A stretch of DNA of 64,000 bases from Candidatus Latescibacterota bacterium (lineage in GTDB: Bacteria > Krumholzibacteriota > Krumholzibacteriia > WVZY01): the NCBI GenBank assembly GCA_963791045.1, contig CAWBQK010000009.1, positions 234,493 through 298,492 of the forward strand, written 5' to 3'. Each line of letters starts with the position of its first letter. Position 1 is the first letter of the stretch. This document shows, one piece after another, positions 1 through 34,959 of the stretch. The notes under the pieces are model-generated. The model searched no databases and was not told the origin of the DNA. It was given only the letters and a program-made list of their open reading frames with translations. A program made the translations under genes and the position numbers.

Positions 1-1987
1 TTGTTCATCTCGGCTAGAAGAAGCCCCAGCGAGTACGCCGATTCGTAGTGTTCGGGATAATCCTCGACGATTTCGCGCAGCAGCTTTTCGGCTTCGTTGT
101 TGCGGCCCTGAGTGTTGTAGAGTACGGCAAGGTTGACTTTAGCCGGATAGAAAAGATGGTCGATCTCGATCGCCGCTTTGTAGGACGCCTCAGCCCGTTC
201 AGGATCACCCAGAGTTGTATAGAGATTACCAAGGTTGTGGCCCGCGAATGAAAAATCGAGCGAGTACGTCATTGCCGCTTCATACTCTTCGATCGTTTCT
301 TCCAGCGCCTCCCTCTGATACGGTTTGAACAGTTCATCGGGCAAAGGGGCGAGCCGCACCGCCGCCTGCATTCGAACCGCGCGAATGGGATCGAAGAGAA
401 GCGGCGACACCAGTTCGAAGAGCCGTCTCGGGTTCGAGGATGTTGGCGTTGAGCACCGCCGTATACCGCATAAGCGCCTCGGGATCGGACAGCGCACGGT
501 TGAATGCCGCCGTCGTCGCGTCACCGGGATAAGCGCCGAGCAAGTTGGAGCGCCGTTGCGCGGACGATTGTCGGGATAGAGTTCGTCACCGGCAAGGCGT
601 ATCAATTTGCCTCCGGCCTCGGGAAGGCGTTCGCGGCCCGCCGCGAGGATCGTTCCGTAATGAGGTTTCTTGGCCTGGCCGTACCACTTCGCGTAGTGAT
701 GCGCCGACCACTGTCGGGCTTGTCGTTGTGACACCGCGCCTGGCTGCACGCGTTGGGCGTTCCGGTCTCGAGCGTGAGATCGGGACGCGGCACGCGCAGA
801 CTGTGATCCGCCCGCCAGTCAACCACCATGTACGGCTGCTCGGCCATATGGCATTTCACGCAGAGATATCCGTCGCTCGGTTTGCCCTCGTGCTCTCGCT
901 TGTGAAAGTGATGATCGTAACTGTCGTACACCTCGGCCTGGTGGCACTGAAGACAGAGGTCGTTGCCTTCTTTGACGAGCTTCGAGGCTATGAACGTCGT
1001 GACAGTCCGCGCAGCGAACATCGTTCTTGTACATTTTGCTCTGCGTGAAAGAACCGTAGACATAGACTTCGTCGAGGATCTGCCCGTCGGCATAGTACAG
1101 ACCCTCTTCGAGAACCGACGGGACGACATTGTCCAGGATATCGGAACGCGTGTGATCGTAGTCGCCGATTTCCATCCGCCTCGAATGACACGGCGCGCAA
1201 AGTTCGACCTGTTGGCGCGATTCGATATTGCCGGTACGAATCACAAGCTCGTAGTTCTCCGTGTCGGGCCGGGCCATCGGCGGAATTTCCGCCCACTCGA
1301 CATGCCGCGACCCGGGCCCGTGACACGCCTCGCAGCTCACATTTATCTCGGACCACGTCGTTGCGAACGTTTGTGTCGCGGCGTCATAGTTTTTCTTGAG
1401 ATTTGTGGAATGACACTCGGCGCACATCCCGTTCCAGTTCTGCGCGCCGCGCGTCCAGTGGAGCCAGTCGTCGGGCGGAACGATCGAATCCGGGTAGAGG
1501 TAGAACCACCTGGACTCGCTCGGTGTCCCAGGCGATCGTCAGGCACTGGAGACTGCCGCCCGGGAAATGGGATCAAATACTGCTGGAGCGGCTCCACACC
1601 GAAGGTGTGTGTGATCTCGAAGTCGCCCGGCTCTCCCCCAGGGCCCTCTGTGTGAACAAAAAACTTCCCGTCTTTTTTGAAAAAACGGGCCGTGACGCTT
1701 TCATAGCGCAAAAACACTATTATTGAAGTCACCCCGTACCGTACTGTCCGCCGCCACCGCCATCGCGTTATCGTGATCGGAGCCCCGCCACGATTCGTAC
1801 GCCTTCTCGTGGCACTTGATGCACTTTTCCTTGCCGACAAATGCCGCCTCCGGACCCGGCTCCGCATCACGCGCTCGTTCGACAAAGGCCTCTTTGAGCG
1901 ACATAAACGGGAACCGAGAGACCACGATGACCAGTGGTGGCGATGAGGCCGGCGACTTCCACTTATGCAAGGTGTGTCGGGGGTCAC
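1..1987 (-). CDS. Multiheme cytochrome c with C-terminal HEAT/TPR-like helical region (several frameshifts; runs off window start)
   Basis: Heme motifs across consecutive frames: CIKCH, CAECH, CEACH, CAPCH, CADCH, CLQCH, CVKCH, plus atypical CSQARCH. N-terminal TM segment. The GTG start (1985-1987) overlaps the presumed Rieske TGA. Confidence 0.85.
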
Positions 1988-2569
1988 GCGTGGTGTCAGC
2001 CTGCGCGGCGTCAGAAGGATTGCGTTTGATCGGGTCGACCGTATCGACTTTCACGATCCCGTTTTCGATCCGCACCGGGTGCAGATCGAGCGCGCGAGGC
2101 GCCGGCGGGCTCAAGACCTCGCCCGTGATGTCAAACGAGGACGAGTGACACGGGCACACAAACCGTCCTTTCTTCGTCGTCCCAGGGAACGGTGCAGCCG
2201 AGGTGGGTGCATTCGCGAGACAAGCGCCAGAAATCCACCGTCTCTCAAACACACCAAATAAAACTTCCCATGCGGAAAAGCCGTCACCGACTCGGGCTCG
2301 AACCGTTCGAGCGGCCCGGCCACCACGACCGCCGCTTCGCCGGCGCCCTTTTGCCTTCCCGCGGGCGGAGAAAATTGAGCGCGATCACGATATACTCGAC
2401 GAGGGCAATCCCGCCAATCACGATCCACAGCTTAAGAAGAACGAGCGGCGGGAGGATTCGCGGAGGCGCAGGCCCGTCACCGGCACCGCATCATCGTTCC
2501 CCGGCCGTCGCTTCCGCGGACATCGCCGGTCTTGCCCGGGTCGGGCTTTTTCTTTTTGTCTTTTGCCAT
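1984..2569 (-). CDS. Rieske 2Fe-2S protein (frameshifted)
   Basis: CTHLGC (shifted frame, ~2190-2212) and FVCPCHSSSFDITGEVLSPPAPRAL. RRSFL twin-arginine-like motif followed by a TM helix. ATG at 2569. Confidence 0.88.
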
Positions 2570-2594
2570 TGTAGTCACTTCACTCTGGATACGA

Positions 2595-4052
2595 TCATCG
2601 CATCCACGGCCACACAAGCGCCATTCCCTCCCCGCGGAACCAGACACCAGCGATCGTCAGAATCACGAAAGCCGTCGCGAAAAAAATAAACAACCGCCTG
2701 GACCGCTTCGTTGTTCGTCGCACCGTATCGTCTTCTTGAAAAAAATGTAAAACGCCATGCGAGCGCCGAGAAAGAATCCCGCCGTGAATCAGACCGTTGC
2801 TCACCGCGGCAGGCAGCTGGGAAACCACGCGGCAAAGTCGACCCAGTACTCCCCCGTCACAACGGCGATCGAAGTCGCGATCGCGGCGATCGGAAGGCCG
2901 CCAGCGCCATCCGCCGCCCCTTGTGCGACATCAGGAAAACACCCGATGTGTCCTCGTCATACCGCAGGTACGGAATGAGAAGCGAGACCGAGCGCCGCCG
3001 GCAAGCGGAATAATCAACACGGCGGCCACCGGATGGAAATGGAGCAGGAGTTCCTGAAAACCCATGAAGTACCACGGCGCCTTGGCGGGGTTGGGGCTCA
3101 TCCCCGGGTTCGCCGCGTCGACCGAGCGGCGCGTCAAACAACACCGCAACGGCCATCACGACGGCGATGAGCACCATCGCGGCCGATACTTCGCGGAGAA
3201 ACAAGTTCGGCAGAAACAAAACGCGCTCGGGTTTCTCCTCCGGCGCCTCCCCAGGCGAGAGCGGAACGACAACCCCGCGGGCCCGCCGTACCCGCCAAAA
3301 ATGAAACGCCATGAGAACGATCGACGAGAACTGGCACCACGGTTGTATGAACCGTATAAAATATAATGAGCGTCGAGGACCCGATCTCTGCGCCGCCGCG
3401 AATCGTATTGACCAGCCAGATCCCCCGCCAACGGGATGTACCCCAGCATCCCGGTTACTATGGTAATAGCCCAGTACGAGAGCTGATCCCACGGCAAAAG
3501 ATACCCGGTGAAATTCGATACCAGGACACAGCAGAGAAGCAGGAGTCCCAGGATCCAGTTGAACTGGCGGGGCGCATAGAATCCGCCGGTGAAGAAAACC
3601 CTCAACAAATGCAGCAAAACTATCGCAATCAGAAAATTGGCGCTCCAGTGGTGGATGTTGCGAACAAGCTTTCCAAAAAGAACGCTGGTCTGGAGCGTGA
3701 CGATCGACTCGTATGCGAGCCCCGGCGACGGCTCGTAAACAAACATGAGAAGAACGCCGGTCGCGACGAGAAGTCCGAAGAGGACGGCCGACATCCCGCC
3801 CAATCCAAAAGTGTGGGTGTACCGAAGCGTCCGCGCGTCAACACGAACCGGGCGGTTGTGGAGAATTAGATTGTTGACGACGATCAACTTGCGATCCGTG
3901 TCGTCCTTCGGAACCACGGGGCCGCGCGTCACCGATTGACCGATGCGCTCGAACATACCGGAGCGTTTTTTCTGAGTGTCTCGATCGTCTTTGTTGCTCA
4001 AATCCGGATCCTGAAGTGCGGAAAAAGGTAATTTCTCAAAGGGATCAGACAT
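2595..4052 (-). CDS. Cytochrome b (b6 plus subunit IV-like, fused; frameshifted)
   Basis: RNIHHWSAN, LHLLRVFFTG, FTGYLLPWDQLSYWA, and PNPAKAPWYFMGFQELL (PEWY-equivalent) in a downstream frame. Confidence 0.88.
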
Positions 4053-6104: not shown

Positions 6105-6134
6105 TTGCCAATACGGGCCCGTTTGTGCTATTCT
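6105..6134 (+). promoter_or_regulatory. Candidate sigma70 promoter of arn operon
   Basis: TTGCCA-18 nt-TATTCT with extended -10 TG. Confidence 0.35.
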
Positions 6135-6239
6135 TGGTGCAAGCGATTTTCTATCCTGTATATGACAAAGGGACCGTGCGATTCCCGTGAATCGTATGTA
6201 AACACCTGTATATCTCGCGACCGCTGGGGGTTCCGGACG

Positions 6240-7391
6240 TTGAGGAACGAATTCCTTCCATTTTCACGCCCATCGATAACCGAAGGGGACATCTCCGCCG
6301 TTGTCGACGTGCTCCGGTCCGGCTGGATCACCACCGGGCAGAAGTGCGCCGAGTTCGAACAGGCGTTTTGTGAATACACCGGCGTGCCCGGGGCCGTCGC
6401 GGTCTCGTCGGCGACCGGGGGGATGCATCTCGCCCTTCACGCCCTCGGGATCGGGCCGGGTGACGAAGTCATCACTCCGTCGCTCACATGGGTGTCGACG
6501 GTCAACATGATCGTCCTCGCCGGCGCCACTCCTGTGTTCGCGGACGTCGACAGGGACACACTCAATGTCACGCCCGAGTCGCTAAGCGCGTGTATCACCC
6601 CAAAAACAAAATTGATAATACCGGTTCATTTTGCCGGCGCCCCCGCCGATATCGGCGCCATCCGGCGAATCGCCGCGGACAAAGGCATCCCGATTATTGA
6701 AGACGCGGCGCACGCCCTCGGAACCGAGTACGACGACCGCCCCGTCGGCGCTTCCGGAACATCGATCTTTTCATTCCACCCAATAAAAAACATTACGACC
6801 GCCGAAGGCGGGATGGTGTGCTCCGATGACGCTGATTTTATCGAACGAATCCGACGTCTCAAGTTCCACGGACTTGGGCTTGACGCCTATGACCGTGCAA
6901 CGCAGGGCCGCTCACCGCAGGCGGAAGTCCTCGAACCGGGCTACAAATACAACATGACCGACATTTCGGCGGTTCTTGGGATCGAACAGCTCAAACGAAT
7001 CGAGACATTCAACCTCAAGAGAACGCAACTGGCGCTGAGATACCGGCAACAGCTCACCCATATGGACGGGATTCTGCCCCTCGCCGACCCCGGCTACCCC
7101 ATGACCCACGCGTGGCATCTCTTTGTCATTCGGGTGGATACGGACAAGTTGGGATTGAGCCGCGCGGAATTCATGGACAGGCTCAAGACCCGCAACATCG
7201 GAACGGGAATTCACTTTCTTGCGGTTCACAATCAGAAATACTATAGAGAAAAGATGGGCGCCGGGCCGGGGATGCTTCCCCACACCGAATGGAACTCCGA
7301 AAGGATCTGTTCGCTCCCGCTCTTCCCCGCCATGTCGGTGGAAGATGTCGACGATGTCGTGGACGCCATCAAAAAAGTAATCAGCGAGTAA
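6240..7391 (+). CDS. arnB: UDP-4-amino-4-deoxy-L-arabinose aminotransferase
   Basis: TTG start gives [21 protein letters not shown] and [15 protein letters not shown] (PLP Lys); first gene of arn cluster. Confidence 0.92.
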
Positions 7392-7415
7392 AGTACATAC
7401 ACAAAACGGAACATC

Positions 7416-8423
7416 ATGCACAAGATCTTGTCCCTATCAATAGTCATCCCTGTTTTCAACGAGGAAGAAAGCCTCCACGAGCTCATCGACCGCTGTCTGG
7501 CCGTGTGCCGGGATATGGCGCGGCCCACCGAACTCATCCTCGTCGATGATGGAAGCATGGACAACTCGATGGAGATCATCTCCGAAGCGGCGATCAAACA
7601 CGACGGTGACATCGTCGGTGTGTTTCTCAATCGAAATTACGGACAGCACGCGGCGGTTATGGCCGGTCTCGGCGAATCGAGGGGCGATATCGTGGTCACG
7701 CTCGACGCCGATCTCCAGAATCCGCCCGAAGAGATCCCGCGACTCGTGGCCAAAATGGAAGAGGGTTACGATGTCGTCGGGACCATTCGCGTGCCGCGAA
7801 ACGACACTGCATTCCGCCGCCTGTCATCGCATCTCGTGAACAAGGTCGTCCAGAAATCGACCGGCGTGATGATGCACGACTACGGATGCATGCTTCGCGC
7901 GTACAAACGCACGATCGTCGATGCGATGCTCTCGTGCCACGAACGGAGCACATTCATCCCCGTTCTCGCAAACAGCTTTGCCCGCAAGACGGCGGAGATC
8001 GAAGTCAAGCACGAGAGCCGCACGCAGGGCACTTCGAAGTACAGTCTCTGGAAACTCGTCAATCTCCAGTTCGATCTCCTGACGAGCATGACCACATCGC
8101 CGCTCCGTATCTTGAGTCTTTTGGGAGCCGTCATTTCATTTGTCGGAATCGCGTTCGGGGTGTACCTGTTCGTGGGACGACTGATCTACGGAGCCGAATG
8201 GGCCGCCGGCGGGGTTTTTACCCTGTTCGCCGTTCTATTTGTTTTTATCGGAGCGCTTTTTATCGGCATGGGACTCCTCGGCGAATATATCGGACGTGTC
8301 TATCACGACGTAAGGGCGCGGCCGCGGTATTTTGTCGAGCGGGTTGTCGGACGTCCGGCGTCGAGACGAACGGACTCCGAACACACATCACGGAAGTTCG
8401 ACGGTTCCGGAACATCGCGTTGA
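7416..8423 (+). CDS. arnC: Undecaprenyl-phosphate 4-deoxy-4-formamido-L-arabinose transferase (GT2)
   Basis: [40 protein letters not shown], two C-terminal TM helices. Confidence 0.92.
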
Positions 8424-8434
8424 AGGATTCAAAA

Positions 8435-10447
8435 ATGAAAGCTGTCGTTCTCGCTTACCATGACATCGGCTGTGTCGGCATCGAGTCGCTCCTCAAGAAC
8501 GGATTCGACATCGCCGCCGTGTTCACGCACAGGGATGACCCATACGAAAACACGTGGTTCGGATCGGTGGCGGAGACCGCCGCCTCGCACGGCATCCCCG
8601 TATTCGCCCCCGATGATGTCAACCACCCCATCTGGGTGGAGAAGATCAAGTCGATCGAGCCCGACATCATCTTCTCCTTTTATTACCGAAACCTTGTCGG
8701 CGAGGAGATTCTCGCCATTCCGGAGGCGGGAGGACTCAACCTCCACGGCTCGCTTCTGCCCGCGTACAGGGGCCGCGCGCCCGTGAACTGGGTTCTCGTC
8801 AAAGGTGAAACCGAAACCGGCGTCACGCTTCATTACATGACCCGGCGACCCGATGCCGGAGACATCGTCGCGCAGAAGAAGGTCGCCATCGCGGACGATG
8901 ACACGGCGCTGACACTCCACAAAAAAACCGCCGCCGCTGCGGGCGAAATGCTCGACAACATTCTCCCGCAGATCAAAGCGGGGACGGCGCCGCGCACGCC
9001 ACAGAGCGACACCGGCGCATCGTATTTTGGCCGCCGCTCGCCCGAAGACGGCGAAATCGACTGGACGCTAACTGCATCAGACGTGCGCAACCTCGTAAGG
9101 GCCGTGACACATCCGTACCCGGGGGCCTTTAGTTTTGTCGGCGAGAGAAAATGCTTCTTCTGGTCTGTAAAAGACGTCCATAACGGCGGTCCCGCGATGC
9201 ACCCCGGGACGATTCTGTCGACCGATCCTCTCGTCATCGCCTGCGGAGAGGGCTCTGTGGAGGTTGAGTTTGGACAACCCGACGATGGCATCCATGTCGC
9301 GGGATCCCAGTTGGCAAGCGAGCTTCATCTCACCGTCGGCATGAGTTTTGGCAAGAGCATGGTGTCGCGAGCGGAAACGGTGAGAAAAAAGAAAGTCCTG
9401 ATCCTCGGTGTCGACGGTTTTATAGGCAATGCGCTCGGCGAACGGCTCCTCGAGAGCGACGACTATGAAGTCCACGGCATGGATATCCGCTCGGAGTATA
9501 TTGAGCGGCTCATGGACCGGCCGGGTTTTAATTTCACCGAAGGCGACATATCGATTCACAGGGAATGGATCGAGTATCACATCCGCAAATGCGATATTAT
9601 CGTCCCTCTCGTCGCCATAGCGACGCCGGCGGAGTACACGCGGAACCCTCTGCGCGTGTTCGAACTGGACTTCGAAGAAAATCTGCGCGTGGTGCGCTAC
9701 TGCGTAAAATACAATAAGCGGATCATCTTCCCTTCGACATCGGAAGTTTACGGGATGTGCCAGGAGGACGAGTTCGATGAGGATAACTCGCAGCTCGTCC
9801 TGGGACCGATTCGCATGCAGCGGTGGATCTATTCGTGCAGCAAGCAGCTTCTCGACCGGGTTATCTGGGCATACGGGCAGAAAGTCGGCACGCGGTTCAC
9901 GCTTTTCCGGCCCTTCAACTGGATCGGCCCGCGGCTCGACAGCCTCGAATCCGCGCGGATCGGCAGCTCGCGCGCAATCACGCAGCTGATTTTGAATCTT
10001 GTCGAGGGCACACCAATCAAACTCGTCGACGGCGGCGACCAGAAACGCTGCTTCACCGACGTGACCGACGGGATTGAAGGACTATTCAGAGTAATAGAAA
10101 ACAAGAATCACAACTGTGACGGCCGGATAATCAACATCGGCAACCCGGACAATGAGATCAGCATCAAGGATCTTGCCCATATGCTGGTCGACATGTTCAA
10201 ACAACATCCCCTGCGGTCGCAGTTTCCTCCGTTTGCCGGGTTCCGCGAGATCGAAAGCCGCTCGCACTACGGTGTGGGTTATGAGGACATCCAACACAGA
10301 CGTCCGAGCATTAGAAACGCAAAGAAACTTCTCAAATGGGCGCCGACGGTGCCGCTCGAAGTGTCGGTTGAAAAAACCCTCGACTTCTTTCTCCGGCAGG
10401 CGGTGGAGAGCGAAGGGTTCGACACGGGACCGGTCAACAAGGCATGA
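8435..10447 (+). CDS. arnA: Bifunctional UDP-L-Ara4N formyltransferase / UDP-glucuronate decarboxylase
   Basis: [13 protein letters not shown] start, [53 protein letters not shown]. Confidence 0.96.
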
Positions 10448-10514
10448 TGAAACGTCGATAGCTGTAATTCGAGTCGCGACTTCGTTTCAACCGCGAGCCC
10501 ATTGAAATTTGTCT

Positions 10515-11405
10515 ATGAGAATTGGCCTGAGAATTGATGTCGATACCCACCGGGGCACGCAAAGGGGCGTCCCGAATCTTCTGCGGCTGCTTGACGATCA
10601 CCATATCGCGGCCACGTTCTTCTTCTCCGTCGGCCCCGACAATATGGGACGTCATCTCTGGCGGCTGCTTCGGCCGCAATTTCTCTTCAAAATGCTGAGA
10701 ACGCGGGCGGCCAGTCTCTACGGCCCGGACATTATCCTCCGGGGGACATTCGGCCGCGGACCACTTCTCGGGGAAAAGTTCGGCGATATCATGAAAGCGG
10801 CCGCGGACGCCGGGCACGAGGCGGGGCTGCACGACTGGGACCACTACACCTGGCAGACACATCTCGACAAGATGGACAGAAGCGTGATACGCGCCACACT
10901 AAAACAGGGTGTCGACACGCTCACGAGCATTCTCGGAACAACACCGGTGTGTTCGGCCGTTCCGGCCTGGAAATGCAACGATACGGTGCTTCTTGAAAAG
11001 AACAGATTCCCGTTCCGGTTCAACAGCGACTGCCGGGGGAAAAACGTCTTCCGGCCCGTCGTCGACGGAAAATCTCTCGACCAGCCCCAGATCCCGGTGA
11101 CCCTACCGACATACGATGAAGTGATCGGTCGCAACGGGATCAACAACAAAAACTTTAATCATTTTATGATCGAACAGCTCGACCTGAACGGTTTGAATGT
11201 GCTGACAATTCACGCCGAATCCGAGGGCATATCCTGTCTGGGGCTCTTTAAAGAGTTCGTCGAAAAAGTCCAGTCACTTGGCGGATCGTTCTGTCCGTTG
11301 GGAGAACTCGTAGAACATGTCGAACCGCTTCCACGAGCGAGCGTGTCGCGGGGATCGCTTCCCGGCCGCGAGGGATGGCTTTCGCTTCAATCGCTCTATG
11401 AGTAG
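10515..11405 (+). CDS. arnD: 4-deoxy-4-formamido-L-arabinose-phosphoundecaprenol deformylase
   Basis: GLRIDVDTHRGT, FFFSVGPDNMGRHLWRL, LPTYDEVIG, TIHAESEG. Confidence 0.93.
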   Translation: MRIGLRIDVDTHRGTQRGVPNLLRLLDDHHIAATFFFSVGPDNMGRHLWRLLRPQFLFKMLRTRAASLYGPDIILRGTFGRGPLLGEKFGDIMKAAADAGHEAGLHDWDHYTWQTHLDKMDRSVIRATLKQGVDTLTSILGTTPVCSAVPAWKCNDTVLLEKNRFPFRFNSDCRGKNVFRPVVDGKSLDQPQIPVTLPTYDEVIGRNGINNKNFNHFMIEQLDLNGLNVLTIHAESEGISCLGLFKEFVEKVQSLGGSFCPLGELVEHVEPLPRASVSRGSLPGREGWLSLQSLYE

Positions 11406-11426
11406 CGGCGTTTTTCGAACACCCAA

Positions 11427-13070
11427 ATGAATAAATCTCTTTCAATACTCGTTCTTCTTTTTGTCCTCGTGTATATGCTCCCCCTGGGTGCGCGGCTGTT
11501 TATTATCCCCGACGAAACCCGTTACGCTGAAATCCCGCGAGAAATGCTCGTGTCGGGAGACTGGATGTCTCCGCGTCTTGCGGGGGTCCGCTACTTCGAA
11601 AAACCCGTTCTCGGTTACTGGATGAACGCCGCGTCGATGGTGGTTTTGGGGGACAACCGATTCGCGGCGCGCCTGCCGTCCGTGTTGTCGGTTGGTCTGA
11701 CGGCGCTTCTACTCCTCTTGTTCACAAGGCGTTTCACGGGCGACAGATTTGCCGGACCGCTCGCCGCGGCGGCGTTCCTGACGTGCCCGATGGTGTTTGC
11801 ATTCGGAGTGTTCAATATTCTCGACAATGCGTTGACGTTGTACCTGACCGCCGCAATGGTGGCTTTCTTCTGTGCGCATACGGCCGACACGCGCCGTTCT
11901 CGATTAATATTCCTCGCCCTTTTTGGCGTGTCGTGCGCCGCCGCGTTTCTCACCAAGGGGTTTCTCGCATTTGCCATCCCCGTGGTTTCCATAATTCCCT
12001 TTATGTTGTGGGAGCGCCGATGGCGCGAATTCCTCACAATGCCGTGGATTCCGATCCTTGCCGTTCTCGTCGTCGCAGCGCCGTGGGCCATCGCGATCCA
12101 TCTGCGCGAGCCGACGTACTGGCATTATTTCTTCTGGGTGGAGCACATCAGACGTTTTATGTCCGAAGGCGCGCAGCACCCGGAACCGTTTCATTTCTTT
12201 ATCCCGCACATCGCGTGGGGAATCCTCCCATGGCTCGCGCTCATTCCCGCCGCGGTCATGGGCTTCAATCGAGAGGACTTCAAGACGGCGCCGGTTCGGT
12301 TCGCCTTGTGCTGGTTTTTGTTTCCGTTTCTCTTCTTTTCGATGTCCGAGGGAAAAATCGCCACGTACATCCTGCCGTGTTTCCCGCCGCTCATTTTTCT
12401 CATCACGGTGGGGATCGTCGGATATATAGATAGCTGTCGGCGAAAAATGATCACCGCGGGGGTGTCCCTGCTCGCCTTATTGACCGGGGGCGCGGCGGTG
12501 GTCTTGCTTCTCAGCCAGTACACGGATTTCATGGGATTCAAGATTTACGAAGATCAGGAAGCGTCGAAGATTCTGATTCTCGGAGGTGGGATACTCGCGT
12601 GGGCGTTGATCCTCCTGTCCGCACTCCGAGCCGGGACCACCCGGCGGGCGGTTGTGCTGTTTTGCGCCGCACCGGTGGTGGTGATGTTCGGCATGCACTT
12701 CATCTTCCCCATCGAGTTCGAAGGCAAAAAGATGCCGGGACGCTTTCTGGAGTCGAACGCCGGCCGGATCGGACCCCGGACGATCATCATCTCCGAAGGC
12801 GAACTTGCCGTCGCGGCATGCTACTACTACAAACGCGACGATGTTTATCTGTACAGGGGAAAGGGCGAACTCGCATGGGGGCTCGATTATGAAGACGCCG
12901 ACGGACGCTTTCTGAGTGATGAAGATCTTCGCGAGCTCTTCGACACGTATCGCGGCGCAAGCCGGATCGTCCTCGTGGTCCGACGCGGCCACTACGAGGA
13001 GTACCGCGACAAGTTCCCGCCTCCGGTCTACGAAGACACCTTCGGCCGCTTCACATTCGTAGAGTTCTAA
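11427..13070 (+). CDS. arnT: L-Ara4N transferase (GT83)
   Basis: PDETRYAEIPREML, RYFEKP, FLTKG, FFWVEHIRRF, GKIATYILP; multiple TM helices. Confidence 0.92.
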   Translation: MNKSLSILVLLFVLVYMLPLGARLFIIPDETRYAEIPREMLVSGDWMSPRLAGVRYFEKPVLGYWMNAASMVVLGDNRFAARLPSVLSVGLTALLLLLFTRRFTGDRFAGPLAAAAFLTCPMVFAFGVFNILDNALTLYLTAAMVAFFCAHTADTRRSRLIFLALFGVSCAAAFLTKGFLAFAIPVVSIIPFMLWERRWREFLTMPWIPILAVLVVAAPWAIAIHLREPTYWHYFFWVEHIRRFMSEGAQHPEPFHFFIPHIAWGILPWLALIPAAVMGFNREDFKTAPVRFALCWFLFPFLFFSMSEGKIATYILPCFPPLIFLITVGIVGYIDSCRRKMITAGVSLLALLTGGAAVVLLLSQYTDFMGFKIYEDQEASKILILGGGILAWALILLSALRAGTTRRAVVLFCAAPVVVMFGMHFIFPIEFEGKKMPGRFLESNAGRIGPRTIIISEGELAVAACYYYKRDDVYLYRGKGELAWGLDYEDADGRFLSDEDLRELFDTYRGASRIVLVVRRGHYEEYRDKFPPPVYEDTFGRFTFVEF

Positions 13071-21175: not shown

Positions 21176-21310
21176 ACGGCGGCACCCGCTCCGCTTTCGC
21201 CTATTGCGCCGGGCAACCCGACGTAGTATCTTCTCGCATGGGTTCGCGTGTCGGATGCGAGCCCCATTTTATGCCCACAATCGATCATGTGCCCGAACAA
21301 GGACCCCCGA

Positions 21311-23138
21311 ATGCCGAATCAAAGACGAAGAAAAGACGTCCGCAATGTAGCCATCATCGCCCATGTCGACCACGGCAAAACCACACTCGTCGACGCGCTG
21401 CTCAAGCAAACGGGCGCATATGATTTTCGCGATGGCGAAACCACAATCATGGATTCCAATCCCCTCGAAAGAGAACGTGGGATTACCATTTTCTCGAAGA
21501 ATGCGTCCTTCATCTGGCGGGATACGACGTTCAACATCGTGGACACACCGGGGCACGCCGACTTTGGTAGCGAGGTCGAACGTATTCTCAAGATGGTCGA
21601 TGGTGTGCTGCTCCTCGTCGATGCGTTCGAAGGTCCGATGCCGCAAACAAAATTCGTCCTCAAGAAATCACTCGAGCTTCACCTGAAACCCATCGTCGTC
21701 ATCAACAAACTCGATCGCCCCAATTCCAGGCCGGCCGAAGTGGCCGACATGACGTTCGATCTTTTTTGCGAATTGAACGCGACCGACGAACAGCTCGACT
21801 TCCCCATCGTCTACGCATCGGGCAAAGACGGTTATGCAAAATTCGAAATCGAGGATGACAATACCGACATAACGCCGCTTCTTGACACAATGTTTCACCG
21901 GGTGCTTCCACCCGTCGGGGATATCGAGAATGATTTCCAGATGCTGGTTACAATGATCGATTACGACAACTATGTGGGGCGTATCGCCGTCGGAAGGATC
22001 TCTCACGGAACGATCAGAACCAATGAACCGGTGGTCCTGGTCAAGCGCGACGGCAAACATGAACGCGGCAAGGTCACGAAGATCTTGAAATACCGCGGAC
22101 TTCTCCGCGTCGAAACGGATATCGCGATGGCCGGAGATATCGTCTCGATCGCCGGGATGGAAAACGCCAAAGTCGGCTCCACAATCGCCGCGCCGGAAAA
22201 CCCCGAGCTCGTTCCCATGGTCAAAATCGATGAGCCGACGATCTCGATGAATTTCTCGCACAACACGAGCCCGCTGACCGGCAAAGACGGTGGACGCTTT
22301 CTCACATCACGTCATATCCGCGAACGGCTCCAACACGAAGCAATGATAAACGTCGGAATCCGCGTCGAGGAGACTCAGGGCGGAGAACGTTTCAAAGTGT
22401 CGGGGCGCGGCGAACTCCATCTGTCGATCCTCATAGAAACGATGCGGCGCGAGGGGTACGAAGTCGAGGTATCGCGTCCCGAGGTGATTCTCAAGAAAGT
22501 CGACGACGATGTGCTCGAACCCGTCGAAGAGGTGGTGATCGAGGTCGATCCCGATTTCCAGGGTCCGGTAATGCAGGCGATCGGGCGAGCGCAAGGGCGA
22601 CATCGAGAACATCACGGTAAGCACCGTCGGAACGGTGCGGATTGAGTTCTACATTGCGTCGCGCGCGCTCATCGGTTTCCGCGGCGAGTTTTTGATGATG
22701 ACGCGGGGAACGGGGATCATGTACCAGAATTTCTACCAGTATCAAAAATACAAGGGTGAGCTGCCCAAGCGGAAGACAGGCGTAATGGTGTCGATGAGCC
22801 CCGGCAATGCCGTTGCCTACGCACTTTGGGGACTGCAGGAACGCGGTGAGATTTTCGCCCACCCGGGCGACGCCCTTTACGAGGGAATGATCGTGGGCGT
22901 CAACAACAAGGGCAGCGACATGGTGGTCAATGCGATTAAAGGCAAAAAGCTCACAAATATTCGCGCCGCCAGCGCGGACGATGCCATCCAGTTGACGCCG
23001 CCGCGCGAGATGACCCTGGAGTTTGCTTTGGAGTTCATTGCCGACGACGAACTCGTCGAGGTCACGCCGAAGAATCTCCGGCTGCGCAAGATGAACCTCA
23101 CTGAAAACGCGCGGAAGCAGGCGGCAAAAGGCCGCTGA
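21311..23138 (+). CDS. typA: Translational GTPase TypA/BipA (frameshift ~22590)
   Basis: [67 protein letters not shown]. Confidence 0.95.
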
Positions 23139-28209: not shown

Positions 28210-28920
28210 TCACAGCTCCACATCAATAACGGCGTTCGTACCGCCAAACCCATCGTCACGTGTTTGAACGGCAAGCGGGTCGGTGACCCAGCGCTCACCG
28301 TCCTCGATAAACATGTACTCGTAACTTCCCGGCGGGAGAACGAGGATCGTACTCCACGCGCCGCCCTGCTTCACCAGCGGTGTGACGTCCGGATTCCAGT
28401 TGTTAAAATTCCCCACCACCGTCACCCGCTTCACATCGGAAGATGACGAAACGTAGGCAAACCGGACATATTGATAACCGTCATCCGACGCGCCCGCCTG
28501 GCTTACGAATGTCGGTGACGCGTCTTCCATGACAACTTCCATCGACTGAGATGCGTCCTCCTGTGTGAGCGGCCCGATGTCGCGGTTGATTCCCGCCCAC
28601 CATCCTCCGACGTAGGCAACAATGGCGACGGCGGCGGCCGCGGCGAGTCCGATCCATCGTGTATTTCGGTCAGCTCGTTTTTGGCGGATGATTACCGGGC
28701 GTTCATCGTCGGCGGCGACACTCTTCATCACCCGTTCGGTGAAGCCTTTCGGCGCGCCAGGTGTTGGAAGGGTCTTGCCGAGCACGAGCAGTTGTTCGTA
28801 TGCGCGGAGGTCCTTCGCCAGTGCGGGATCTTCCCCGACCCTGTCGAGAAACTCGCGTGCTTCGCGCTCATCGAGGTCACCATCAAAATAACGTGCCAGC
28901 AGGGCGTCCATCGTTCTCAC
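28210..28920 (-). CDS. Anti-sigma factor with TM helix and extracytoplasmic CBM48-like domain
   Basis: N-terminal LLARYFDGDL (ASD-like), TM WIGLAAAAAVAIVAYVGGWW, then VTVVGNFNNW...PGSYEYMFIEDGERWVTDP...DDGFGGTNAVI. Confidence 0.8.
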   Translation of the reverse strand: MRTMDALLARYFDGDLDEREAREFLDRVGEDPALAKDLRAYEQLLVLGKTLPTPGAPKGFTERVMKSVAADDERPVIIRQKRADRNTRWIGLAAAAAVAIVAYVGGWWAGINRDIGPLTQEDASQSMEVVMEDASPTFVSQAGASDDGYQYVRFAYVSSSSDVKRVTVVGNFNNWNPDVTPLVKQGGAWSTILVLPPGSYEYMFIEDGERWVTDPLAVQTRDDGFGGTNAVIDVEL

Positions 28921-28926
28921 CTTTCC

Positions 28927-29559
28927 TCATTCCACGATGTCTTCGGGTGTCATCCGCGTTGCATCGGGAAAAAGCTTATCTTTTAAAATAGCGCGGGCGC
29001 GGTGCGCCCTCACTTTGAGCGAACCAACCGTGTCGCCGGTAATCTTACTGATTTCGTCGTATGGAATATTCTGTATATGGTGAAGGACGAACACTTCGCG
29101 GTACCCGGGGGGGAGTTCCTGGAGCGCGGTTTCGAGTTGCTTTCGCATCTCGCGCTCGCTGATCTCGGCAAGGGGATCGTACTGCGGACGCCTGTCCTCG
29201 AGTACCGCCGTATCCGTGTCCTGTTCCAGCAACGCGTCTAGCGACACCACATTGGACCGCTTGCGCGCCCGGATGTGATCCCGGGCGAGATTGACGGCGA
29301 TCTGGATGAGCCAGGTACCAAATTGCGACTGGCCCCTGAAGCCGTCGAGCCCCCGGTAGGCGCGGACAAACGCCTCGTGCGCGAGTTCTTCGGCGACCTG
29401 GCCATCAGCCATCAGCCGAAGAAGAACGCCGTACACACGATCCTTGTGACGGTTGACCAGGGTCGCAAATGCTTCCCTGTCACCGGCTTGAACTGCCTTG
29501 ACTGTTGTCTGGTCGTTATTGGTCATAATCCGATCGCCATCTTGAAAGATAGGGTCCAT
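28927..29559 (-). CDS. ECF RNA polymerase sigma-70 factor
   Basis: GDREAFATLVNRH, AEELAHEAFVRAY, FGTWLIQIAVN, region 4 LPPGYREVFVL...GSLKVRAHRAR. Start at 29559 or 29526. Confidence 0.92.
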   Translation of the reverse strand: MDPIFQDGDRIMTNNDQTTVKAVQAGDREAFATLVNRHKDRVYGVLLRLMADGQVAEELAHEAFVRAYRGLDGFRGQSQFGTWLIQIAVNLARDHIRARKRSNVVSLDALLEQDTDTAVLEDRRPQYDPLAEISEREMRKQLETALQELPPGYREVFVLHHIQNIPYDEISKITGDTVGSLKVRAHRARAILKDKLFPDATRMTPEDIVE

Positions 29560-29566
29560 CAGGTTG

Positions 29567-29592
29567 GACGACCAGAAGCATACAGGGTTACA
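29567..29592 (-). promoter_or_regulatory. ECF-type autoregulatory promoter copy 1
   Basis: TGTAAC-CCTGTATGCTTCTGGT(16)-CGTC; the -35 element overlaps the cysE stop codon. Confidence 0.7.
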
Positions 29593-30328
29593 ACACTTTT
29601 TCTCGACTATTTTCTGGTGCGTCCGGTTGGGGGCCGCCCGACGCCGAACCGTTCTTGACCTGGAACTCGAGCTGCTCGACTTTGTCGAGAAGCACCTCGA
29701 GCACACGGACATCGTGATCGCCTTTACTCTCGCTGAGATTGACGTCCATTTTACGCGGCGCGCCATCGCGCTTGCGGTCGAGGACACGGCCGACAAGTCC
29801 AACCACGGTGGCGCCGGCAGGAACGTCCTTCACGACAATCGCGCCCGCGCCGATGCGCGCATCATCGTCAACGGTGACCGCACCGAGCACTTTGGCGCCG
29901 GCACCGACCACGACGCCATTGCCAAGCGTCGGATGCCGCTTCTTTTTCTCGAGACTCGTTCCCCCCAATGTGACCGCCTGGTACAACGTAACATCGTTGC
30001 CGATCTCCGTGGTCTCGCCAATAACCACACCCATGCCATGATCGATAAAGAAACGTCTGCCGATCGTGGCGCCCGGGTGGATCTCGATCCCGGTGAGCGC
30101 GCGATTGACATGGCTCAGCAGCCGGGCAAGGAGCCGTATGTTCGACGTCCACAATCGGTGCGCGATCCGGTGCATGACGATCGCGTGGAGGCCCGGATAG
30201 CAGAGAATGACTTCGAGAACGCTTCGCGCCGCGGGATCCCGCCGGAAAATCGTCCGTATGTCTTCCGCGATTCTCGCGAACGGACCGGAGCGCCCGGCGG
30301 TCTGTGTGGTGTCGTGTACGTGTTCCAT
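29588..30328 (-). CDS. cysE: Serine O-acetyltransferase
   Basis: [48 protein letters not shown]. Confidence 0.96.
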
Positions 30329-30345
30329 TGTAGTCTCCTCTGACC

Positions 30346-31308
30346 CTATGATGTTTGTGCGGCGGTTTTCTGGTCTTCTTCGAACTGAAAAAGCGGTGTC
30401 GACAGATACCGCTCACCGGTGTCGCAGAGTATGGTCACAATTAGCTTGCCCGCGTTTTCGGGGCGCTTCGCCACCTCGACGGCGGCGTGAACATTGGCTC
30501 CCGCCGAAATGCCCGCGAGGATTCCCTCGGAGCGTGCGAGCTCGCGCGCCATTGCGAACGCTTGTTCGTTGGTAACCTGCACTATTTCATTAATGATTTC
30601 AGTGTTGAGCACGCCGGGGATAAATCCCGCTCCGATCCCCTGGATCTTGTGCGGTCCGGGCGCGCCACCCGAGATGACCGGTGAATCGACTGGTTCTACG
30701 GCGATGGCCTGAAACGCTGGGTTGCGCTCGCGGATAACTTCGGTCACTCCGGTAATGGTCCCGCCGGTGCCGACTCCAGCGACGAAAATATCGACCTTGC
30801 CGTCGGTGTCTATCCAGATTTCCTCGGCCGTCGTGCGTCTGTGTACTTCGGGGTTCGCCGGATTCTCGAACTGCTGGAGGATCACGGCGCCGGGGGTTCG
30901 TTCGGCGATAACGCCGGCTTCGGCGATGGCGCCCTTCATCCCATCAGCCCCGGGTGTGAGGATCAACTCGGCGCCAAGCGCGCGCAGCATGTTGCGCCGT
31001 TCGACACTCATGGTGTCGGGCATCGTGAGAATCAACCGGTAACCCTTGGCGGCGGCGACAAACGCGAGCGCGATTCCCGTGTTGCCGCTGGTCGGTTCGA
31101 CGAGCACCGTCTCGCCGGGACGGATGCGGCCGTCGCGCTCGGCGGTCTCGACCATGCTGACGCCGATCCGGTCCTTAACGCTCGAAAGAGGGTTGCAGAA
31201 TTCGGCCTTCCCGAGGACACGACCGCCGCCCTTTGGCGAGAGACGCCCCAGTTCGATAAGCGGCGTTCGCCCGATAGCCTGTGTGATGTCAGAGAAAATC
31301 CGTCCCAT
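30346..31308 (-). CDS. cysK: Cysteine synthase A
   Basis: [17 protein letters not shown] (PLP Lys), [45 protein letters not shown]. Confidence 0.97.
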
Positions 31309-31349
31309 TTTGTTGATTCCTTTCGAGTGTCGTTCGACGAGTCTGTGGC

Positions 31350-31379
31350 AAAAAAAAACCCGCGGCAAGGCCGCGGGTT
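31350..31379 (-). terminator. Attenuator intrinsic terminator in cysK leader
   Basis: Minus strand AACCCGCGGC-CTT-GCCGCGGGTT with a run of 9 T, about 40 nt upstream of the cysK ATG. Confidence 0.9.
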
Positions 31380-31408
31380 GGTATTCGTTCGAATGATATT
31401 AAAGTACT

Positions 31409-31492
31409 CTATTCGATAATAAATACACCCCGGCCCATGGCGCTTCTACAAGCGCAACAACAGCAGCAGAATTCTTGGGTTCGGGACGTCAA
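31409..31492 (-). CDS. Poly-cysteine leader peptide MTSRTQEFCCCCCACRSAMGRGVFIIE (27 aa)
   Basis: TTG start 7 nt after AAAAGG; codons TGC TGC TGT TGT TGC GCT TGT; TAG stop; lies between promoter and terminator ahead of cysK. Confidence 0.82.
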   Translation of the reverse strand: MTSRTQEFCCCCCACRSAMGRGVFIIE

Positions 31493-31523
31493 ATTATCGC
31501 CTTTTTCGATAGATGTTTGATTA

Positions 31524-31552
31524 AGTATATAGGTATCGGAAGGCATTGTCAA
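31524..31552 (-). promoter_or_regulatory. Sigma70 promoter of leader-cysK-cysE
   Basis: TTGACA-17 nt-TATACT on the minus strand. Confidence 0.85.
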
Positions 31553-31586
31553 GCCGCCTGGGGCGATTTGCCATGTGAATCGGTTA

Positions 31587-32489
31587 TCAAGCGTTCGTCG
31601 GCAGCGGCTTCTGACGGCGCCGCTCGTGGAACACACCCATCACACCCAGAACGATGAGCACCGATCCGCCGATCGTCCACCGCGTGATCGGTTCGTCGAG
31701 GAGCACGCGGCCAAGCAACACCGCGACGACAGGATTCACATAGGCGTACGTCATCACGATGTTGGTGGGCAGGAGACGGAGCGCTTTTACAAATGATGTG
31801 AAAGCAAAAACCGACCCAAAGATGACGAGATACCCCCACGCAACCCATGCTTCCGGAATCGGTGTCGGTGCCGGTTCGTTTACAAGGAGCGCCACCGTAA
31901 ATAGTCCGATCCCCCCGAACATATGCTGATATCCTGAACTCACTTCGGGTCCGAGCGAGAGCGCCTTTCGTTTCTGGAAAATCGCGCCCATCCCCCAAAA
32001 AACCACGGCGGCGATTATCGCAATGGCGGCAAAAATATCCAGGATGTTGCCGGCAAGAATCACGGGGCCGTTCAACACGCCGACACCGACAAGACCGACA
32101 AGGAGTGCGCCGAGGAGACGAAGCGACGGAGGTCGCCTGTCGACAATCGCTTCCATAATGGTCACCCAGATGGGAAGCGCACCGACGAGAAGCGCCGCGT
32201 AGCCCGAATCCGCCCGTCGTTCCGCCCACGACACCAGACCGTTCCCTCCCACCCACAGAAGAACCCCCGATACGGCGAGCACGCCGAGTTCACGCTTGCC
32301 AACCTTGAGGTTTTCTTTGGAGAGTTTCGCCCATGCAAAAAGAATGATGCACGCGGCAAAGACACGCATCCCCGCCATCGTAAACGCGGGAAACCCGGAG
32401 CCGTCGCGTACCGCGACACGAATCGCGAGGTACGTGCTTCCCCACACGATGTAGACAACGATGAGATGAAATATTCCACGGAGGTTCAC
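31587..32489 (-). CDS. EamA/DMT family transporter
   Basis: VYIVWGSTYLAIR, 10 TM helices, YAYVNPVVAVLLG (YedA-like). Confidence 0.9.
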   Translation of the reverse strand: MNLRGIFHLIVVYIVWGSTYLAIRVAVRDGSGFPAFTMAGMRVFAACIILFAWAKLSKENLKVGKRELGVLAVSGVLLWVGGNGLVSWAERRADSGYAALLVGALPIWVTIMEAIVDRRPPSLRLLGALLVGLVGVGVLNGPVILAGNILDIFAAIAIIAAVVFWGMGAIFQKRKALSLGPEVSSGYQHMFGGIGLFTVALLVNEPAPTPIPEAWVAWGYLVIFGSVFAFTSFVKALRLLPTNIVMTYAYVNPVVAVLLGRVLLDEPITRWTIGGSVLIVLGVMGVFHERRRQKPLPTNA

Positions 32490-32506
32490 GCGGTGGAGCC
32501 TAGTCG

Positions 32507-33181
32507 TTAATAGGTGTTGATAAATGTCTCTGTGTCGATGACCGTGGCGTAATTGCCGCCCAGGGTTTTCAGGGTCGAGAGATGGACATCCACGGAGTCG
32601 ATTACTTTGTCGTCATACTCTAAGGAACGTGTCGCGCACGCATCACCCACCAGGATACATTCGAAACCGAGATCGTAGGCAGCCCGGACGGCGCCCTCGA
32701 CACACATGTGTGTCTGCATCCCACAGATCACCAGACGATCGATGCCGGCGCCCTTGAGATAGTCGAGAAGGTCCGTGCCGTTGAACGCGCTGACCTCATC
32801 CTTCATTACAACCTTCTCGCCGTCGATCGGTACGACGTCCGGATGAAAGTCTCCACCTTTGGACACATTGTGCCCAACATGAACGACGGTGAGGTTCCCA
32901 CCTCTGAATTTCTCGATCAGCTTTTTGCAGTTGGCGCTCGCCTTTTCGGGCTCGGCGAGCGGCATGAATCCGTCTGGAAAATAGAAGGCCTGGACGTCTA
33001 TGACGACAAGCGCCGTCTTCGCATCCAACGGCCGGGGCCCTTCCGCGTCGGCGGCGACCGCCGCGGCGGGGATTGCGGCGAGAACCAACATGAAAACCGC
33101 GACGACCATCGTCTTTAGCTTCCGGATTCGCGCGAACCCTCGTGTTTGCCCATCGATAAATTGAATTGGCTTGTTTTTCAT
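32507..33181 (-). CDS. Isochorismatase-family cysteine hydrolase, probably exported
   Basis: ALVVIDVQ, K..SAF, GMQTHMCVE; hydrophobic signal-like N-terminus. Start at 33181 or 33109. Confidence 0.85.
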   Translation of the reverse strand: MKNKPIQFIDGQTRGFARIRKLKTMVVAVFMLVLAAIPAAAVAADAEGPRPLDAKTALVVIDVQAFYFPDGFMPLAEPEKASANCKKLIEKFRGGNLTVVHVGHNVSKGGDFHPDVVPIDGEKVVMKDEVSAFNGTDLLDYLKGAGIDRLVICGMQTHMCVEGAVRAAYDLGFECILVGDACATRSLEYDDKVIDSVDVHLSTLKTLGGNYATVIDTETFINTY

Positions 33182-33498
33182 TTTTTGCCTCTTAGCGCCG
33201 TCGCGCCCGCCGACTTCGTTGGAGATTTCCCGGGGGCAGTTTGTGATGGGGCCCCCCTCGCGCCCCATCGTACCAGAAAACCCCAAACGGTCAAGGAAGG
33301 TACTCCGTCGGACAACTTATCGACTCGTCGTCGGACTCTCCCGTGATTGAACGTCCTTTAATGGACGGCCGGGGGCGTAATGTGGTATCTTCGCTTCGGC
33401 GCATGCTCCTCTCCGACACCCTGCATCCCAGCTATACCACCTGCCGGACGGGAGCCTTCCTTTTTGGAAAACTCAAACTGTTGACGGAAGGATTACCG

Positions 33499-34959
33499 AT
33501 GGGCGGCTTTTTTGGTGTTGCTTCAAGAGAAGACTGTATCACAAGCCTCTTTTATGGAACCGACTACCACAGTCATCTCGGCACCAAACGCGGCGGACTA
33601 GCGACGACGAACGGGGGAGGCTTTGTCAGGTACATCCACGACATCACAAACGCCCAGTTCCGGAGCAAATTCGAAACGGACATTCAGTCTATGAAAGGCC
33701 GCCTGGGTATCGGTGTCATTAGCGATTACGAAGACCAGCCGCTTCTCATCAACTCGCATCTCGGGAGCTATGCAATCGTGACCGTTGGCGTTGTCAAAAA
33801 CGCGGACGAACTCGTTCGAAAAGCGTTCAGCAAACGAGGTGTTCATTTCTCGGAAATGAGCGGGGAGGAGATCAACCCGACCGAGCTGGTGGCGTCACTC
33901 ATAGACCAGGAAGAGAGTTTTGTAGAAGGAATCAAGAACGCGCAATCGCATATCGAGGGCTCGTGCTCCATATTGCTCCTCACAAAGGACGGCATCTACG
34001 CGGCGAGAGACAAGCTGGGACGGACGCCGGTAATTGTTGGCGAGGGCCCCGAGGGGTATGCCGCGACGATGGAAACATGCGCCTTCCCCAACCTGGGGTT
34101 TAAAACCACAAAGTATCTGGGACCCGGCGAAACCGTGCTCATGACCCCCGACGGCATCGAACAGAAAACCCCGCCGGGGCCTGACATGCAGATCTGTAGT
34201 TTTCTCTGGGTGTATTATGGTTACCCCGCGTCAAGCTACGAGGGCTTGAATGTCGAGGCGGCGCGTTACCGGTGCGGCGCCGCGCTTGCCGACGCCGACA
34301 ATGTTGAAATCGATTACGTGGCAGGCGTCCCCGACTCGGGCACCGCCCACGCGCTCGGCTATTCCGACCGTGCAAACGTCCGCTACCGCAGACCGTTTGT
34401 CAAATACACGCCGACTTGGCCGCGAAGTTTTATGCCGCAAAACCAGTCGATCCGTGACCTGGTTGCAAAAATGAAACTCATCCCGATCCAGGAACTCACC
34501 GAGGGGCAGAGGCTTCTCTTTTGTGAGGACTCCATCGTCCGAGGAACCCAACTCAAAGACACCATACAGAGGATGTACGAGTACGGGGCGAAAGAAGTCC
34601 ACATGCGCCCCGCGTGCCCACCGCTAGTATTCGGCTGCAAATTCCTCAACTTCTCGCGTTCGCGTTCCGAACTCGATCTTGCCGGAAGAAAAGCGATCGC
34701 CGAAATGGAAAACGGCAGGGAACCCAATCTCGACGAATACACCGATGAAACATCGGACAAGTACCATGCGATGGTCGACCGGATCGGAGAAACCATCGGC
34801 GTGACATCGCTTAAGTATCAAAAGCTCGATGACATGGTGAAAGCAATCGGGGTCGCCCGGGAGAAGGTCTGCACCTACTGCTGGAACGGCTGCGACAAAC
34901 CTGGAATCTGCAGCGCGCCCGTGGATGAATCGCGGGCGGCGGTCACGGAAGAATTGTAA
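33499..34959 (+). CDS. purF: Amidophosphoribosyltransferase (variant lacking N-terminal Cys)
   Basis: MGGFFGV start, ARDKLGRTP, GVPDSG, EDSIVRGT (PRPP loop), CTYCWNG. Confidence 0.88.
   Translation: MGGFFGVASREDCITSLFYGTDYHSHLGTKRGGLATTNGGGFVRYIHDITNAQFRSKFETDIQSMKGRLGIGVISDYEDQPLLINSHLGSYAIVTVGVVKNADELVRKAFSKRGVHFSEMSGEEINPTELVASLIDQEESFVEGIKNAQSHIEGSCSILLLTKDGIYAARDKLGRTPVIVGEGPEGYAATMETCAFPNLGFKTTKYLGPGETVLMTPDGIEQKTPPGPDMQICSFLWVYYGYPASSYEGLNVEAARYRCGAALADADNVEIDYVAGVPDSGTAHALGYSDRANVRYRRPFVKYTPTWPRSFMPQNQSIRDLVAKMKLIPIQELTEGQRLLFCEDSIVRGTQLKDTIQRMYEYGAKEVHMRPACPPLVFGCKFLNFSRSRSELDLAGRKAIAEMENGREPNLDEYTDETSDKYHAMVDRIGETIGVTSLKYQKLDDMVKAIGVAREKVCTYCWNGCDKPGICSAPVDESRAAVTEEL

Follow-up and report, generated by a model that had tools for sequence, protein, structure and literature searches.

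A predicted cysteine-sensing transcription attenuator upstream of cysK-cysE in a Candidatus Latescibacterota genome

The leader-peptide transcription attenuators of Enterobacteria (trpL, hisL, leuL, thrL and pheL) are the classical systems in which the position of a translating ribosome decides between two hairpins. An element of the same design is described here from the minus strand of a 64,000-nucleotide stretch of contig CAWBQK010000009.1 (assembly GCA_963791045.1, Candidatus Latescibacterota bacterium), henceforth referred to as the window. The element occupies positions 31350-31552, upstream of the cysteine synthesis genes cysK and cysE, and had been proposed in an earlier note on this stretch. 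It shares with the classical attenuators a promoter, a run of codons for the end product, antiterminator and terminator hairpins, a U tract and, as predicted, ribosome position as the decider. It differs from them in that the amino acid sensed would be cysteine, the genes controlled would be cysK-cysE and the host belongs to an uncultured phylum. The sequence and the folding models presented below make it quite probable that the element acts on cysK-cysE as a classical ribosome-mediated attenuator of transcription, sensing charged cysteine transfer RNA (Cys-tRNA). Cysteine is the odd one out in leader-peptide control, and the mycobacterial cases that have been studied act on translation.

Leader peptides with runs of Cys codons have been described before actinobacterial cys operons, where, in the available text of Seliverstov et al. 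(2005, PMC1262725), no obvious terminators accompany them. The polycysteine small open reading frames (ORFs) of mycobacteria, of the Ms5788A type, are described in the available part of Canestrari et al. (2020, bioRxiv 10.1101/834739) as leaderless, with the Cys run at the 3' end, and as masking the Shine-Dalgarno site of the next gene with no transcription termination. That part of the preprint also called attenuation by an upstream ORF (uORF) for cysteine undescribed in 2020. The statement of the earlier note that poly-Cys leaders are described for actinobacterial cys genes agrees with both sources, as far as their available text goes.

Closer in predicted mechanism is uORFC-8-2, found before cysS in Rhodobacterales and predicted to be a ribosome-mediated attenuator with a terminator stem and a U run (Brewer et al. 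2021, PMC8632094); in the available text its two tandem Cys codons lie near codons 14-15, in the first of two stems. The cysS gene of Deinococcus deserti is preceded by a 10-codon leader with two Cys, according to the available text of PMC4007540. The window element resembles uORFC-8-2 in its adjacent Cys codons, its terminator stem with a U run and its predicted ribosome-mediated mode of action. Both published leaders precede cysS, carry two Cys and come from other phyla, whereas the window leader precedes cysK-cysE and carries six. Neither published leader is in Rfam, and the window element was set apart from uORFC-8-2 by gene context. A full-text search, which left most subscription journals outside, found no published description of a leader that combines Cys codons and an intrinsic terminator upstream of cysK or cysE. 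The earlier note had known of no terminator-type Cys attenuator in this kind of lineage; the idea itself has a precedent in Rhodobacterales cysS (PMC8632094, in its available text). The sensed amino acid, the controlled genes and the lineage are new, and the mechanism is not.

Comparison with Rfam release 15 gave best matches to the window leader of no more than 25 bits, against thresholds of 33-79. Leu_leader and Trp_leader scored 18 bits on the window leader, far under threshold, and matched the terminator alone. A search with seven loci, the window leader and six analogues from other genomes, returned no match. The features of the window element and of the genes that follow it are listed below.

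31524-31552, minus strand: sigma-70-type promoter, TTGACA (31552-31547), 17-base spacer, TATACT (31529-31524), matching the consensus at 11 of 12 positions.
31500-31506, minus strand: Shine-Dalgarno-like AAAAAGG, 7 bases 5' of the leader TTG.
31409-31492, minus strand: putative leader ORF, TTG at 31492, 27 codons plus TAG (31411-31409), translated as (M)TSRTQEFCCCCCACRSAMGRGVFIIE.
31476-31489, minus strand: region 1, ACGUCCCG..CCCA, which in folds can pair with region 2 (31437-31425), a possible anti-antiterminator.
31448-31468, minus strand: regulatory codons, five consecutive Cys codons at 31468-31454 (TGC TGC TGT TGT TGC), GCT, and a sixth Cys codon at 31450-31448.
31440-31455, minus strand: small hairpin GCGCUU-GUAG-AAGCGC, present in folds with the ribosome on the first Cys codon.
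31369-31435, minus strand: predicted antiterminator hairpin, 5' arm 31435-31411, 3' arm 31394-31369.
31350-31378, minus strand: intrinsic terminator, ACCCGCGGC-CUU-GCCGCGGGU (31378-31358) and U9 (31358-31350).
31317-31323, minus strand: cysK Shine-Dalgarno site AAAGGAA, which resembles the AAAAAGG of the leader.
30346-31308, minus strand: cysK, cysteine synthase A, 320 amino acids, ATG at 31308; PALP match; TIGR01139 at 449 bits (cut-off 351).
29588-30328, minus strand: cysE, serine O-acetyltransferase, 246 amino acids, 17 bases after cysK; TIGR01172 at 244.5 bits (cut-off 210.65).

These parts correspond closely to those in the earlier note: its promoter, ribosome-binding site, 27-codon TTG frame, five plus one Cys codons, G+C-rich terminator with nine U's, cysK Shine-Dalgarno site and ATG are all present, and its assignment of the downstream genes is borne out by the curated NCBIfam cut-offs, both of which are exceeded. 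In a consensus scan of 29000-33500 the promoter ranked first of five promoter-like sites (shuffled sequence gave a mean of 1.5), and transcription would be expected to start near 31517. The leader TTG lies 31 bases past the end of the -10 box, with the Shine-Dalgarno site between. The frame that holds the leader is open upstream as far as 31636, so that the frame by itself does not fix the start, and the TTG was chosen with the help of the promoter and the Shine-Dalgarno site; translation from this TTG is the presumed reading of the sequence. The Cys codons, in the pattern CCCCC-A-C, stand mid-frame, the last codon of the run of five being 14 codons ahead of the stop. The 5' arm of the antiterminator falls wholly within the final eight leader codons and the T of the TAG. 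The terminator has a G+C-rich stem of 9-10 base pairs closed by the 3-base CUU loop, and was the top-ranked terminator-like site in a scan of 29000-33500. Because the segment ACCCGCGGCC (31378-31369) belongs both to the antiterminator and to the 5' arm of the terminator, the two hairpins are mutually exclusive. Only 41 bases separate the U tract from the cysK ATG. No promoter-like site was found between the terminator and cysK (31350-31308) in the consensus scan, so that cysK appears reachable only by read-through of the terminator.

The Cys codons and the antiterminator also stand out from chance. Across all 3,656,870 bases of the genome, on both strands and in every frame, the run in the leader is the only one of at least five TGY (TGC or TGT) codons. 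Runs of at least four number 12 genome-wide, and the other 11 have no T7 within 150 bases. The antiterminator has a predicted energy of -24.1 kcal/mol, compared with -12.1 +/- 2.6 kcal/mol for dinucleotide shuffles of the 5' half, and was equalled by 1 of 2000 shuffles; the pairing of its arms and its exclusion of the terminator had been proposed in the earlier note. A duplex between the terminator 5' arm and the upstream region was equalled by 61 of 2000 shuffles. The folding energy of the terminator itself is -18.1 kcal/mol.

The effect of ribosome position was modelled by ending the nascent transcript at the terminator loop and masking 31 bases around the ribosome. The antiterminator was the minimum-energy fold with no ribosome present and with the A site on any of the six Cys codons, and was lost with the A site on the stop codon. 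These folds, with and without ribosome masks, support the earlier suggestion that stalling on the Cys codons leaves the antiterminator free to form, from which cysteine-dependent read-through would follow. Downstream (3') of a stalled ribosome, the two alternative forms are nearly isoenergetic (terminator -26.9 kcal/mol, antiterminator -26.2 kcal/mol), as would be expected in the model for a switch set by folding order.

The proposed mechanism can be described as follows. Transcription would begin at the promoter (31552-31524), and a ribosome would load at the TTG (31492) and trail the polymerase. With Cys-tRNA plentiful, the ribosome would reach the TAG (31411-31409) and cover the antiterminator 5' arm (31435-31411); ACCCGCGGCC would then pair with GCCGCGGGU, the terminator would form, and transcription would stop at U9, 41 bases before cysK. 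With Cys-tRNA scarce, the ribosome would stall on the Cys codons (31468-31448), just 5' of the antiterminator arm, and the antiterminator (31435-31369) would form once transcribed and sequester the terminator 5' arm, allowing read-through into cysK-cysE. Coupling of ribosome to polymerase and a response to cysteine are both presumed in this scheme.

An alternative is translational attenuation in the mycobacterial style, in which a ribosome on the poly-Cys codons would alter access to the cysK Shine-Dalgarno site and polarity would be secondary. Among poly-Cys leaders this is the only mechanism studied experimentally, as far as the available text of the preprint goes (10.1101/834739), and the window leader does share with the mycobacterial ones a short upstream ORF, consecutive Cys codons, adjacent cysteine genes and, as predicted, Cys-tRNA sensing through ribosome stalling. 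It differs from them in several features: the frame has a Shine-Dalgarno site of its own where the mycobacterial frames are leaderless, its Cys run lies in the middle and not at the 3' end, and a strong intrinsic terminator with an antiterminator is present where mycobacterial leaders have none. In addition, the cysK Shine-Dalgarno site (31323-31317), 27 bases past the U tract, is outside all predicted structures. The window element does not belong to the mycobacterial translational type, and translational attenuation is considered very unlikely here.

Recurrence of the design was sought among relatives in one class of the phylum, comprising 208 species genomes, in which the source genome (G000) is the sole member of its genus. 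In one other family (f6), 9 of 12 genomes hold a cysE of the same type, that of genome G039, and the gene order in all nine is cysE-cysK. Each of the nine loci has a TTGAC(A/C)-17-TAnnnT promoter, a small frame with 2-4 adjacent Cys codons, and a perfect G+C-rich hairpin followed by 6-9 U. The start codon is ATG in eight leaders and GTG in one. The leader frames are given below.

MTATYLSSLLCCCCPAHPGAREG: two genomes; GTG start in G039.
MTAKNLSSFISCCCSPRHIAREG: one genome.
MTVKNLSSFISCCCPARHSAREG: one genome.
MDCILHKSARCCSPLHTRKVG: one genome.
MDRLLSNPTCCCRPVHITDRREGL: one genome.
MDRLLSSSFCCCRPLHNRDRREEL: one genome.
MDHMHHNLLCCCCPVHIMDKRKGM: one genome.
MKRTRMHLCCCRHLHRGRPGRAYR: one genome.

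When these leaders were aligned, the sole invariant block within the frames was TGTTG, inside the Cys codons; outside those codons the peptides are not conserved. The terminators have changed with their pairing retained: one pair is G-C in two species, G-U in a third and A-U in a fourth, and the genera of this family have three quite different stem sequences. These compensatory changes were read directly from the loci, as the MAFFT leader alignment is out of register there. With the ribosome on the first Cys codon, an antiterminator made of the 3' end of the frame and the terminator 5' arm was predicted in six of the eight distinct leaders, and all six vanished with the ribosome on the stop codon. 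The f6 leaders share with the window element a promoter, a Cys-run leader, an intrinsic terminator and adjacent cysteine synthesis genes; they differ from it in the cysE-cysK order, the smaller number of Cys codons, the Pro/His that follow the run and the hairpin sequences.

Two further observations were made on the f6 leaders. In leaders L138-L146 the Cys run is followed by Pro/Ser-x-(x)-His (CCCCPAH, CCCSPRH, CCSPLH, CCCRPVH, CCCRHLH), a pattern that is absent from the window leader and may only reflect RNA pairing. In one leader (L146, genome G049, locus 1300-1345) the ATG follows 7 bases after the end of the -10 box TATCAT, a spacing which suggests that the transcript translated here may be leaderless; GAGG-type Shine-Dalgarno sites precede the other eight.

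A pattern of four TGY codons with T7 matched in 17 genomes of the class, and the true leaders among them are those of G000, G039, G051 and G047. The other matches were rejected as coding regions in another frame or as gene 3' ends (for example, L119). One locus (L118, contig C67 of G157) is ambiguous, having a terminator-like hairpin and its U run as well as four TGY codons; the N-terminus of the gene that follows is like that of a class II aminoacyl-tRNA synthetase or an EpmA-type protein. The Cys frame at this locus has no stop for 253 codons, the DNA is G+C-rich, and the arrangement may be due to chance. No Cys leader was found upstream of cysS in G000, G039, G047 or G056. A crude scan of G000 for leaders with a run of any one amino acid and a terminator gave 136 candidates, and of the ten inspected, the cysK leader was the only one to stand before a matching biosynthetic gene.

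The search was extended beyond the phylum to the surroundings of CysK relatives of 58-71% identity, at 80 loci in species genomes and 80 in metagenomes (160 in all). No close relative was found, the best CysK identities being 71% on genome contigs and 69% on metagenome contigs. A Cys-run frame with a correctly oriented terminator was present at only one of the 160 loci, in a Smithellaceae genome (L031, G208). There, positions 862-3924 hold a CymR-like Rrf2 gene, the leader MNLKLIKLNNATQIMCCCMEMRNSWKWGDSFM, a terminator, an O-acetylhomoserine/O-acetylserine sulfhydrylase gene, cysK and a cystathionine beta-synthase gene. A second Smithellaceae genome (L234, G258) retains the leader as MNLKLIKLNNVTQMMCCCMGMRKSREWGGSFM. 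The arrangement suggests possible double control of this operon, by protein and by attenuation. The promoter, the Cys-run leader, the terminator and the cysteine synthesis genes that follow are again as in the window element; the three Cys codons, the sulfhydrylase as first gene and the CymR-like gene upstream are not. Two actinobacterial loci in the same sample (L085 and L109) carry leaders of the known type, with five and nine Cys codons at the 3' end of the frame.

An independent view of the window leader was provided by a 324-base contig from a sediment metagenome (X1) that spans 31243-31561 and is approximately 95% identical to it, with 15 differences and one gap. One difference is synonymous in the second Cys codon (TGC to TGT, 31463), one replaces Met19 by Arg (31437), and one alters the antiterminator loop at 31403. 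The terminator is kept, with a stem G-C changed to G-U (31362) and a loop that is altered and longer (31367, with an insertion at 31369). There is no insertion or deletion in the leader frame or the U tract. The contig lends modest support to both the leader frame and the terminator. The 20 sequencing runs identified all had small shares, none above 0.15, and their habitats were given no weight as evidence.

These data also bear on a third possibility, that the frame encodes a functional Cys-rich micro-protein with a metal or redox role, or that the arrangement arose by chance from the terminator of the upstream gene and a cryptic frame. The openness of the frame as far as 31636, together with the frame breaks seen elsewhere in the assembly, would fit such an account. 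A micro-protein is difficult to reconcile with analogue peptides that are unconserved outside the Cys codons, and with a metagenome contig that tolerates M19R yet is changed only synonymously in the Cys run. The terminator is not readily assigned to the upstream EamA-family gene, which ends normally at 31587 with an ordinary basic tail, 209 bases before the stem and with the promoter between. Chance is further contradicted by the unique run of five Cys codons and by the shuffle result for the antiterminator (1 of 2000). This explanation was judged the least probable of those considered.

The frame breaks in question affect several genes: rpoB matches extend over three frames and cysS is split in two frames (contig C5, L147 and L231), and the TypA/BipA gene at 21248-22645 of the window stops at residue 465 of about 600. 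The assembly probably carries insertion/deletion errors, which may also explain its completeness estimate of 81%.

Several results weigh against the attenuator as proposed. In sequence, the leader start is a TTG with a weak AAGG-type Shine-Dalgarno site, frame breaks occur in other genes of this assembly (none was seen at the leader), the comparison with the sediment contig extends to 8 of its 15 differences, and the sole RNA contig found (run X11) is identical to cysK over 30955-31191 only and does not cover the leader. In structure, the equilibrium fold of the complete leader keeps the terminator in seven of eight ribosome states, so antitermination must be kinetic, as in the textbook cases. 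The 1:2 pairing of the leader start with region 2, at -22.9 kcal/mol, was equalled by 261 of 2000 shuffles. The small hairpin at 31455-31440, for which the earlier note had suggested a pausing role, is present as described but folds no better than shuffled sequence, and a function for it is without support. In relatives, three genomes of the same family (G007, G010 and G012), which have an orthologous cysK followed by cysE, show neither a Cys-rich small frame nor a terminator in the upstream regions. Poly-Cys small frames with stems, which the earlier note had proposed to look for in related genomes, occur as analogues in the nine f6 genomes but not in these three. Two of the eight f6 leaders (L142 and L144) lack an antiterminator in folds. 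There is no clear sequence similarity between the window leader and the f6 leaders, and the conservation is therefore by analogy and not by orthology. Control of cysK also appears to differ among relatives, since in a genome of another family (G036, L006, locus 920-1390 in cysK orientation) the gene immediately 5' of cysK encodes an Rrf2/CymR-like regulator.

Some of these points are shared with a further alternative, in which the attenuator is regulated by a protein, small RNA or metabolite that binds the leader RNA, or is simply leaky, and the Cys frame is not translated. The TTG start and weak Shine-Dalgarno site would be unsurprising in that case, translation of the Cys frame having been deduced from sequence, and CymR/Rrf2-like genes do stand before the G036 cysK and the Smithellaceae leader. 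Such a signal leaves unexplained why the only run of five Cys codons in the genome lies in this leader, why the Cys codons are the sole invariant part of the leaders in nine other genomes, each of which has a Shine-Dalgarno site or a leaderless start, and why the stop codon falls at the end of the antiterminator 5' arm. No Rfam family matched the leader. A signal other than the ribosome was thus considered unlikely, and a ribosome-mediated attenuator remains the preferred description of the window element.

A broader proposal, regarded as a serious possibility and not as the expected outcome, is that terminator-type Cys-tRNA attenuators are an unrecognised, recurrent control of cysteine synthesis, with at least three independent origins (this genome, family f6 and Smithellaceae). 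On this proposal, cysteine would join Trp, His, Leu, Thr, Phe and Ile/Val among the amino acids whose biosynthetic genes are under classical attenuation. A clean terminator-type Cys attenuator would extend the classical mechanism to cysteine biosynthesis, given that the same design is found in a second family and again in an unrelated phylum; it would also show that an uncultured phylum makes use of this mechanism and that the mechanism evolves readily and repeatedly. A simple annotation rule follows, namely a run of Cys codons with a terminator upstream of cys genes, as such elements are missed by gene callers and by Rfam. The leader could, in addition, serve as a compact natural reporter of cysteine or Cys-tRNA status.

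An extracytoplasmic function (ECF) sigma factor gene and an anti-sigma factor gene (28210-29802, minus strand) lie 3' of cysE on the same strand, and the interval between cysE and the sigma gene contains only a weak terminator-like site (29569-29554). The pair may consequently be co-transcribed with cysK-cysE, so that the read-through transcript may also carry it under the same cysteine control; if so, a stress regulon would be tied to cysteine supply. Elsewhere in the window, positions 6105-13070 on the plus strand hold an Arn-type lipid A modification cluster consisting of a DegT-family aminotransferase, a bifunctional ArnA, a polysaccharide deacetylase and an ArnT-like transferase.

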